From Callorhinchus milii (Eukaryota), in the NCBI RefSeq assembly GCF_018977255.1, contig NW_024704770.1, positions 2,542,001-2,606,000 on the forward strand: DNA of 64,000 nt, written 5' to 3'. The position numbers and the translations under genes were made by a program. Within the stretch, counting starts at the first letter, position 1, and the number at the start of each line of letters is the position of its first letter. Below the pieces are notes generated by a model, which did no database searches, was not told the DNA's origin, and saw nothing but the letters and a program-made list of their open reading frames with translations. Below are positions 9,101 to 12,100 of this stretch, in pieces.

Positions 9101-12100
9101 GATTATGGGGCAAGGAAGAGGTCGATTGAAACTGGAAGCGCGGCCCATGTGCAATGATGAATGGAAACTGCAGACATTTGAATCCTGAACTAGACTGTGG
9201 AAATCTTTCTATTCTGAGCCTCGGCCATGCCTCGTCACTGCCTCGGCCATGCTTCGTCAGTTTGGGGTGGAATAGTTTCATTTCAGGACAATGATAACAA
9301 TAATAAGCCTTATCGTGTTAAGACTTCTCAAAGCGCTTCACGGAACATACTGCACAGCGAATTGACCGTGTGTTTCGTGGGCGAAACCCGGCAGCCGATT
9401 GCTCACAGGGATAACCTTAAAAAATATTAATTAAAAAAAAAAACGTGGTTGTTTTCAGATGTATAACACACAGCCGGAGCAATACGAAGCTCCAGATAAA
9501 GACTTCATGATCGTGGCCCTGGACTTGCTGAGCGGGCTAGCGGAGGGGCTCGGGGGCAATGTGGAGCAGCTGGTAGCCAGGAGCAACATCATGACCCTTC
9601 TCTTTCAATGCATGCAGGTGAGTGGTAAAGGATTGCGGGGAAGCAAGACCAATATTTGATCGAGCAAAGATCACAGCCAAGTTACGAGATATGTAAATGT
9701 TGGCCAAGTTCTCTTCTATTTGTCTCTCTCTCCCCCCTTTCTCTCTCTCCCTTACCCCTTCCTTCCCCTCCCTCTTCTCTCTGCGTGCCCCCCACATATA
9801 TTATAAAGTGTAGTGACTCTAAATTTTGTGGGCGAAACGCGGCGCCCAGTTCATCCACTGTGTTGCTGTTGTACATCTGTGGCAGATTATGGGGGAAGGA
9901 AGAGGACTGTGGTATTGAAACTCGAAGCACGGCCCAAGTGCAATGATGAATAGAAACAGCAGACATTTGAATCCTGAACTAGACTGTGGAAACCTTTCTA
10001 TTCTGAGCCTTGGCCGTGCATCGTCACAATACCTTACCTTCCTCTGTGGCAGGACTTCATTGAACCCATAATTAACAACTCTCAAATCCTTTCATGCCCC
10101 CACACCCCTCTGACCTGCTCAACCCACTGCCTCCAGCCTTCTGCTTGTCCCTCGTGCCCTCCGTTCCACCGTTGGCGGCCGCGCTTTTAGCTGCCGCACC
10201 TCGAAACTCTGTCACGCTCTTCCTCTATCCCTCCGCCGTGCCCCCTTCTTCCTTCTCCATCTTCAGGTCGTGCTCGAAAGACCTTCCTGTTCGACCGTGA
10301 CTACGGTCACACTCACCCGCCCTCCCACCCCCACCGCCCAGCTCGGAGTCGTGCTCCGCCACTGTCAGGTGCTGCCCTGAGTGAGGGGGGTGCAAGTTGT
10401 TGAAAGGTTCAAGGGGAACCCACACCAGATTTTTAATGGTAGCGCTGCTCTGATATTTTCTTTATAATGTCCCGTAGGACACGATGCCTGAGGTGCGGCA
10501 GAGCTCATTTGCACTCCTCGGTGACCTAACCAAAGCCTGTTTTCAACACGTGAAGCCGTGTATAGGTAAGTGTGTCTGTGACCTCCCTTCATCTCGCCAC
10601 CTCCCCCCTTTAGTTGGGATTTTATTGGGAACTCCATCCCACAGTCCCCCCCCTTGCCTCCTTCAACACCCGTCTCAAAACCCTTCTCTTCGACCAACCG
10701 TGCCGTGCTTTCGATCAAAGCAGTATCGTGCTTTCCTCCATTCCACCAATCCTTAACTGTCCGGCGTCTTGGGACTTCCTCCTGATGTGAGAGGCGCCGT
10801 GTAAAATGTCCTTTGTTGTTGATGTATCTTCAGAAGCCTGTTCCCATTTGAAGGGGGGAGATACCGGTCTCTGGTTCCCTTGGTCACGATTCTCCCTCCC
10901 TCGCCCTCTCGCGATCGTACCTGTATCCTCTGGAAATGATGCACAAAGTGTTCTCTGAATGTGGTGATGTTTCACATATTCGTACTGTCTGATCCAAAGG
11001 CTCTCTGGTTTCCGGGTTTGCCCTCGGGAGGGTAGGCAAGTGGCTGCTTTTGGCAGGATGTAGGTGTAGGGGAATGGCTTCTTTTCTCAGCTTGTGACTG
11101 AGTTGTTTAGGTCCCTCATCAACAGAGGCCTGGTTTACTCCTGGAGCAAAGTTTTGCGAGATTGAAGGCCAGGGAAATCCCGTTGTCCCCAGAAAAGGGG
11201 ATGCGCTAAATTGATATCTAAACCTAACTGTTCGATGTTTATGTTGTGTTCGCGTAGTCCTGTAGCTCAGTGGTTAGAGCGCTCGCCTCGCAAGCGAGAG
11301 GACCTGGGTTTGATTCCCAAGCGGGTCAGGGGGAAACCTTAGCAAGTTTTCTTACTCCACACACGCCTGCGCCGACTGGAAGATGTGATATGGCGCTGTA
11401 TCAAATGCCAGGATTATTATTATTATTATCATTTAATTTCCCTTCTAAAATTCTTTACCCGAATATAGCGGAGTTCATGCCAATCTTGGGGACCAACCTG
11501 AACCCAGAGTTCATCTCTGTATGCAATAACGCCACATGGGCCATTGGGGAGATCTGTATGCAGATGGGTGAGTGTTTTCCTGATATCTGAAGTCCTGTAG
11601 CTCAATGGTTAGAGCACACACCTCGCTAGCAAGAGGACATGGGTTTGATTCCCGGGCAGAGCTAAACCTAGGGCAAGTTTCCTTACTCCACACGCACGCC
11701 TCTGTTTACCTCGCAAAAACTGGGAACATGGTTGTTAGTCGATTGGCGGATCATTTTTCCGGAGGTAATAATTCCTTCCAAAAAAAAATAATGAATCGGT
11801 CACTTCAATGCACAACTATTTATGGGACGCTGCTGTGCTCAATTGGCTGCCGCGTTTTGCCCACAAAACACACAGCCAATTCACTTTATAGCATATTCCG
11901 TGAAGCGCTTTGAGACATCTCGAAGATGTGATGATAATATTATTAGGTGCTGTATTATTACTAAGCTGACCCCAGTCGGTCAGTGATGTTGCCCCTCTGA
12001 CTCCTGCCCCCCATCTTCTTCCTCAGGTGCCGAGATGCAGCCGTACGTCTCATTGGTACTGAATAACTTGGTGGAGATAATCAACAGACCCAACACTCCC

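Follow-up and report, generated by a model that had tools for sequence, protein, structure and literature searches.

Three intronic box C/D snoRNA copies in the TNPO2 gene of Callorhinchus milii, which we refer to as family B (B1, B2 and B3), are likely orthologues of zebrafish SNORD200, and we hold with high confidence the reading in which they act through their D' guide alone, directed at C346 of 18S rRNA, with the nine bases preceding box D likely forming one arm of an internal stem and not a guide. The copies lie in a window of 64,000 nucleotides, by which we mean the whole stretch of DNA that was analysed. What the D' guide is predicted to do is already known in another fish, the zebrafish, and family B is a further member of a described but little-known family whose mechanism is not new. 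We infer, by extension, that the C. milii copies are expressed and that C346 of the shark 18S is methylated.

The layout is the same in each copy, with ATGATGA (box C), a 9-nt spacer, the guide, CTGA (box D'), the C'-like TGTGGA, 12 nt and a second CTGA (box D), and in three of three the boxes C, D', C' and D are ordered and normally spaced over the 64–66 nt from C to D; the C' element, UGUGGA in the RNA, is one base from consensus. All lie on the + strand: B1 at 548–613 (box C 548–554, guide 564–578, D' 579–582, C' 591–597, D 610–613), B2 at 9154–9217 (box C 9154–9160, guide 9170–9184, D' 9185–9188, C' 9195–9201, D 9214–9217) and B3 at 9943–10006 (box C 9943–9949, guide 9959–9973, D' 9974–9977, C' 9984–9990, D 10003–10006). 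Searching the window for the 15-mer of the D' guide returns three exact + strand matches, at 564, 9170 and 9959, against a chance expectation of 0.06 at up to two mismatches, and three matches were reached in 0 of 100 shuffles. There is no fourth copy in the window on either strand, even when up to five guide mismatches before CTGA are allowed. A simple stem-filtered C/D scan recovered one of the three copies and was set aside.

Pairwise identity among B1–B3 is 78–90% over 97–160 nt, flanks included, and 59 of the 66 columns from box C to box D are invariant, as are six of six aligned bases of the D'–C' spacer, in which one copy has a 2-nt insertion; at 30 nt from the RNAs the flank of B1 can no longer be aligned with those of B2 and B3 (2/30 invariant). 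Judged by their sequences the three arose by recent duplication. With the background rate inside the RNAs (13/18 to 13/20) as the yardstick, the 9-mer before box D would be invariant with a probability of 0.02–0.05, its border having been chosen post hoc, and the 15-mer with one of 0.002–0.008; in copies of such recent origin, the constancy of the 9-mer is weak evidence, and that of the 15-mer says somewhat more. Among the 23 nt that follow box D (9218–9240 in B2, with the same flank in B1 and B3), 16 positions are invariant, and part of this flank is repeated in tandem in B2 (9219–9259); such likeness may come from an external stem or from nothing more than the recent duplication. The first-pass annotation of this DNA had given the interval 9141–10019 and held that all three copies keep both elements while adjacent bases vary. 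The three do keep the 15-mer before the D' CTGA and the 9-mer before box D; that interval holds two of the three, and B1 lies outside it; the variation of adjacent bases was overstated, given how much of the columns, spacer and 3' flank is invariant.

The host gene is TNPO2. Its coding exons run on the + strand from 195 to 14760 in the window and account for an 888-aa UniRef entry of this species, named Transportin 2, from residue 34 up to the stop; the exons that flank the family B copies encode a transportin, one of them is 100% identical to Callorhinchus milii UniRef proteins of that name (the best 3 of 120 listed matches), and one of these proteins maps across 195–14757. In the exon map, + strand exons at 8677–8784, 9459–9617 and 10478–10565 lie respectively 5' of the B2 intron, between the B2 and B3 introns and 3' of the B3 intron, and all three copies are sense to TNPO2, one per intron. 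Their distance to the 3' splice site is 370 nt for B1, 241 nt for B2 and 471 nt for B3, and the five snoRNAs of the window for which this distance was computed all lie 241–471 nt upstream of that site. In mammals the typical distance of an intronic snoRNA to the 3' splice site is about 70 nt, and the C. milii copies are farther away.

In box C/D RNAs, methylation falls opposite guide position 5, counted from the box (the +5 rule). On 18S rRNA of the zebrafish type, guide positions 2–15 pair with 343–356 (human numbering) through 14 pairs, one of them G-U; in such guides at least nine rRNA pairs are looked for, beginning at the second base ahead of D or D'. Position 1 is unpaired, as is position 16, which varies among the copies, and position 5 (G9180 in B2, whose guide occupies 9170–9184) faces C346, which is the predicted site of 2'-O-methylation. 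The numbering rests on a hand count along the human 18S sequence as aligned in PMC7668251 (Supplemental Data 2), with 49 gap characters before column 361; this makes the C of AUUC number 346 and puts the U eight bases on at 354, in agreement with Um354 of the same source. The first-pass annotation had given this C and this number, and the count bears it out; C346 is a measured zebrafish site with SNORD200 as its assigned guide. Its pairing of about 14 nt with one G:U holds for the U-type 18S, as in zebrafish, where both 18S types have U350, and fails on human 18S, in which C350 produces a mismatch at guide position 9. The duplex energies follow suit, at –18.8 kcal/mol for the zebrafish-type target with its one G-U, –19.1 for a perfect complement and –14.4 for the human-type target. 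Since the first two are so similar, the prediction stands with either G or A at 347 of shark 18S; with G347, the G-U, at guide position 6, adjoins the methylated pair.

No stronger partner of the D' guide came to light in 28S rRNA, where the best candidate seen by eye has seven consecutive pairs and was rejected. Zebrafish and human 28S do contain, near alignment column 4687, a 10-nt match to positions 5–14 of the D' guide (9171–9180); it is of the same sense and for that reason not a target, and is likely due to chance. Scanning for the 18S motif gave one match in viral contigs, which lacked an Rfam match in its locus and was taken as chance, and none in prokaryote genomes, and an orthologue scan of metagenome contigs gave three matches, with C' or D boxes downstream in none of the three, also taken as chance.

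Ramachandran et al. 2020 (PMC7668251) mapped 2'-O-methylation of SSU-C346 (human numbering) in zebrafish by RiboMeth-seq and assigned to it a new guide, SNORD200, which is intronic in tnpo2 and acts via its D' element; the assignment was made by pairing rules and expression, without a knockout, and the authors found neither an Rfam hit nor a BLAST relative for it. Cm346 scores 0.84, 0.48, 0.63, 0.59 and 0.92 across five zebrafish stages from egg to adult tail and is one of seven sites that rise in development (PMC7668251), and its assignment to a novel guide suggests that it is among the ten zebrafish sites absent from human and mouse. In a second zebrafish data set there is an intronic C/D RNA at the SNORD200 coordinates (PMC11880993). 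That source also places a third intronic C/D RNA in tnpo2, nepal_novelsnoRNA119 at chr3:18820914-18821001, which may be another SNORD41 or SNORD200 copy.

Family B shares with zebrafish SNORD200 the host gene and the D' guide slot, with position 5 on 18S C346, and, by eye, 13 of 14 guide bases in the same register. The likeness extends outside the guide, again by eye, to box C (AUGAUGA), D' (CUGA), the UGUGGA C' element and box D (CUGA), and to a stem that joins the arms beside boxes C and D in register (7/8 pairs); the order relative to SNORD41 in the host gene is likewise compatible with that in zebrafish. There are of course differences. C. milii has three copies and one is listed for zebrafish SNORD200; guide position 6 from D' is U in family B and C in zebrafish; the family B guide makes one more pair, at position 15; the D-adjacent sequences are identical at five of nine positions; and expression and methylation have been measured for the zebrafish RNA, whereas family B is known here from its sequence. 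On balance, this comparison by eye with one outgroup sequence points to orthology as the likely relationship.

Family models and human counterparts were the other leads. The first-pass annotation had proposed aligning the copies to Rfam models and to human SNORD135, and neither comparison yields a relative. At gathering level Rfam gives 19 matches in the window, none of them at family B, and between 9050 and 10100 the 17 matches up to E 10 have a best E of 0.32, none being near gathering; there is thus no model for family B among them. Weak matches to snoR38, SNORD79, SNORD27 and SNORD121A (16.6–22.6 bits, E 0.76–7.9) arise through the boxes, fall far under gathering thresholds of 44–52 bits and belong to RNAs with guides unlike that of family B. 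As for human TNPO2, it hosts only SNORD41 and SNORD135 among the rows listed from the human snoRNA atlas (PMC4914119), where the two share a box D guide and have 28S-4276 as their assigned site, where SNORD135 has no Rfam id and where none of the rows listed is an 18S-346 entry. The snoSeeker list places SNORD41B within TNPO2 (PMC1636440), and human SNORD135 (ZL2), whose sequence is given in PMC8482216, is likely the same RNA. Like family B, SNORD41 (RF00588) and SNORD135 are box C/D snoRNAs in TNPO2 introns. They differ in using a box D guide for 28S-U4276, which family B lacks, and have no sequence match to it; RF00588 has no match at the family B coordinates, and the counterparts of the human pair in the window are three SNORD41 copies without the internal stem. 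We therefore rejected the identification of family B with SNORD135, whose SNORD41-type D guide for 28S-4276 matches those SNORD41 copies and shows that lead to have been wrong.

This leaves the nine bases before box D (9205–9213 in B2), proposed at first pass as an orphan D guide, an idea that the evidence does not support. When the copies are folded, the D-adjacent bases pair in each of them with those just after box C, the final A of box C and 7 nt beyond it (9160–9167 in B2) pairing with 9206–9213, so that eight of the nine bases make up the 3' arm of an internal stem. In B3 the 5' arm (9949–9956) is the exact complement of 9995–10002, and the 'target' that could not be placed for the 9-mer is, for eight of its nine bases, present in the RNA itself. 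In the register fixed by boxes C and D, a run of eight pairs occurs in three of three family B copies and in none of the three SNORD41 copies, whose D-adjacent strand is a real guide; shuffling the arms produces such a run with probabilities of 0.003, 0.0009 and 0.00005 in the three copies, and 173 of 63,689 7-mers of the window would pair equally well. The stem has pair probabilities of 0.55–0.99, and the mean predicted unpaired probability is 0.23–0.27 for the D-adjacent strand versus 0.68–0.75 for the D' guide. All cells (100%) are paired in register versus 44–63% in slid registers, a comparison in which the structure derives from the same three sequences and the shuffle control is uninformative. 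The overall folding energy of the copies is no better than that of shuffles (z –0.03 to –0.87). Within C. milii the sole change in the stem among copies turns a G-U into an A-U, with no two-sided change, and by eye the zebrafish SNORD200 stem keeps five pairs identical, replaces U-A by C-G and A-U by U-G, and breaks one G-C; the sequences thus suggest a covariation between zebrafish and shark that is modest and comes from a single outgroup. No Watson–Crick target for the 9-mer was seen by eye in 18S or 28S rRNA, and with the folding this makes it likely an arm of the internal stem and not a guide.

How might such an RNA work? Release from the intron, trimming to the box C/D k-turn, binding of 15.5K and assembly of NOP56, NOP58 and fibrillarin constitute an established pathway (PMC5579392). 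In family B, splicing would release each intron and trimming would halt at the k-turn formed by boxes C and D and bound by 15.5K, on which NOP56, NOP58 and fibrillarin would then assemble; guide positions 2–15 would pair with 18S 343–356, and the nucleotide facing position 5 would be the one that fibrillarin modifies. The eight bases before box D would meanwhile pair with the final A of box C and the seven bases after it, lengthening the helix on the inner side of the k-turn; with this internal stem in place the D guide slot, which is not used, would presumably be shut and the D' guide accessible.

Could the 9-mer nonetheless be a second guide, directing methylation of a G in rRNA, snRNA, tRNA or mRNA, with the stem opening on the target? 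We think this quite improbable. It is true that the 9-mer is invariant in three of three copies, whereas the arm it pairs with has one variable position, and that two wobble-rich matches can be seen by eye in the rRNA comparison, which covered 18S and 28S: one at 28S alignment column 2293, with positions 2–10 paired and three to four G-U pairs among them, the other at 18S G1447, with eight pairs, two G-U and a mismatch at position 2. By our own estimate, however, about one or two wobble matches of this kind are expected by chance, and neither site is a methylated one in the zebrafish table of PMC7668251. An exact target for the core of the 9-mer was not seen in six 18S/28S sequences scanned by eye, a procedure that can miss matches, and zebrafish SNORD200 differs at four of the nine positions, among them position 5, where it has U instead of C, so a second antisense element that is conserved between species and has a Watson–Crick target in 18S or 28S, as a double guide should have, is not what we find. 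The strand is also predicted to be largely paired, as given above, and 83 of 86 zebrafish SNORDs guide one site, with pairing that is almost all Watson–Crick (PMC7668251). A more speculative variant, which we regard as very improbable, would have the D-adjacent arm be a self-locked second guide opened only by a non-rRNA target specific to cartilaginous fish (snRNA, tRNA or mRNA), with the first guide writing an 18S mark that is ancestral, varies in development and has been lost in mammals.

The internal stem and the single D' guide remain our preferred account, and against it one can also set the idea that the copies are SNORD200 orthologues that no longer methylate 18S in C. milii, being relics or chaperones that pair without methylating. 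The G-U that all copies may form at position 6, the tendency of recent duplicates to look conserved even without selection and the long distance to the 3' splice site all speak for it; in three of three copies neither the guide nor any of the four boxes is damaged, while flanks 30 nt off cannot be aligned between B1 and the others, and the duplex is equally stable with G or A opposite position 6, all of which makes it improbable. That family B is instead the SNORD135 orthologue, or an independent invention resembling SNORD200 through the common target only, strikes us as scarcely credible. SNORD135 does share the TNPO2 host and does lack an Rfam id in the atlas (PMC4914119), but its D guide refutes the first version, and the second leaves unexplained why family B and SNORD200 agree in host gene, guide slot, C' element and stem.

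If family B and SNORD200 are indeed orthologues, a guide that zebrafish shares with a cartilaginous fish, and that is absent from the human atlas rows, would have been present in the jawed-vertebrate ancestor and lost on the way to humans. The sequences suggest that 18S Cm346 is likely an ancestral jawed-vertebrate mark lost in the human lineage, alongside the U-to-C change in the target. The authors of SNORD200 proposed species adaptation as the explanation of the sites new to zebrafish (PMC7668251); a mark that was supposedly zebrafish-specific likely arose before cartilaginous and bony fish diverged, and the value of the present finding is evolutionary. In practical terms, the C. milii copies supply a second member for a SNORD200 family model, and they recommend a cheap check for 'orphan guides', namely testing whether the arm that adjoins box C pairs with them. 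In the literature covered (most subscription journals and annotation databases being outside its scope) there is no report of a SNORD200-type guide beyond zebrafish, and a term search found C346 not mentioned in the main text of PMC8609340, PMC3349704 and PMC5027482; such guides may already be annotated in other fishes or amphibians.

A few further observations concern the neighbours of family B. Rfam matches identify three SNORD41-family snoRNAs in other TNPO2 introns, on the + strand at 1735–1807, 7138–7209 and 10930–10997, which serve as synteny markers, TNPO2 being the SNORD41 host common to shark, zebrafish and human. Their box C is non-canonical, with G, G and C as its last base, and that of human SNORD135 likewise ends in G; by eye, their D guide fits the human 28S target and not the changed zebrafish one. 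Finally, tRNA-like Rfam matches occur at 16 places in the window (for example 1866–1932, 11259–11325 and 28269–28341), with near-identical sequence and downstream flanks in common, and these are likely the heads of a tRNA-derived SINE, the SINEs of C. milii being a subject of PMC5499810.
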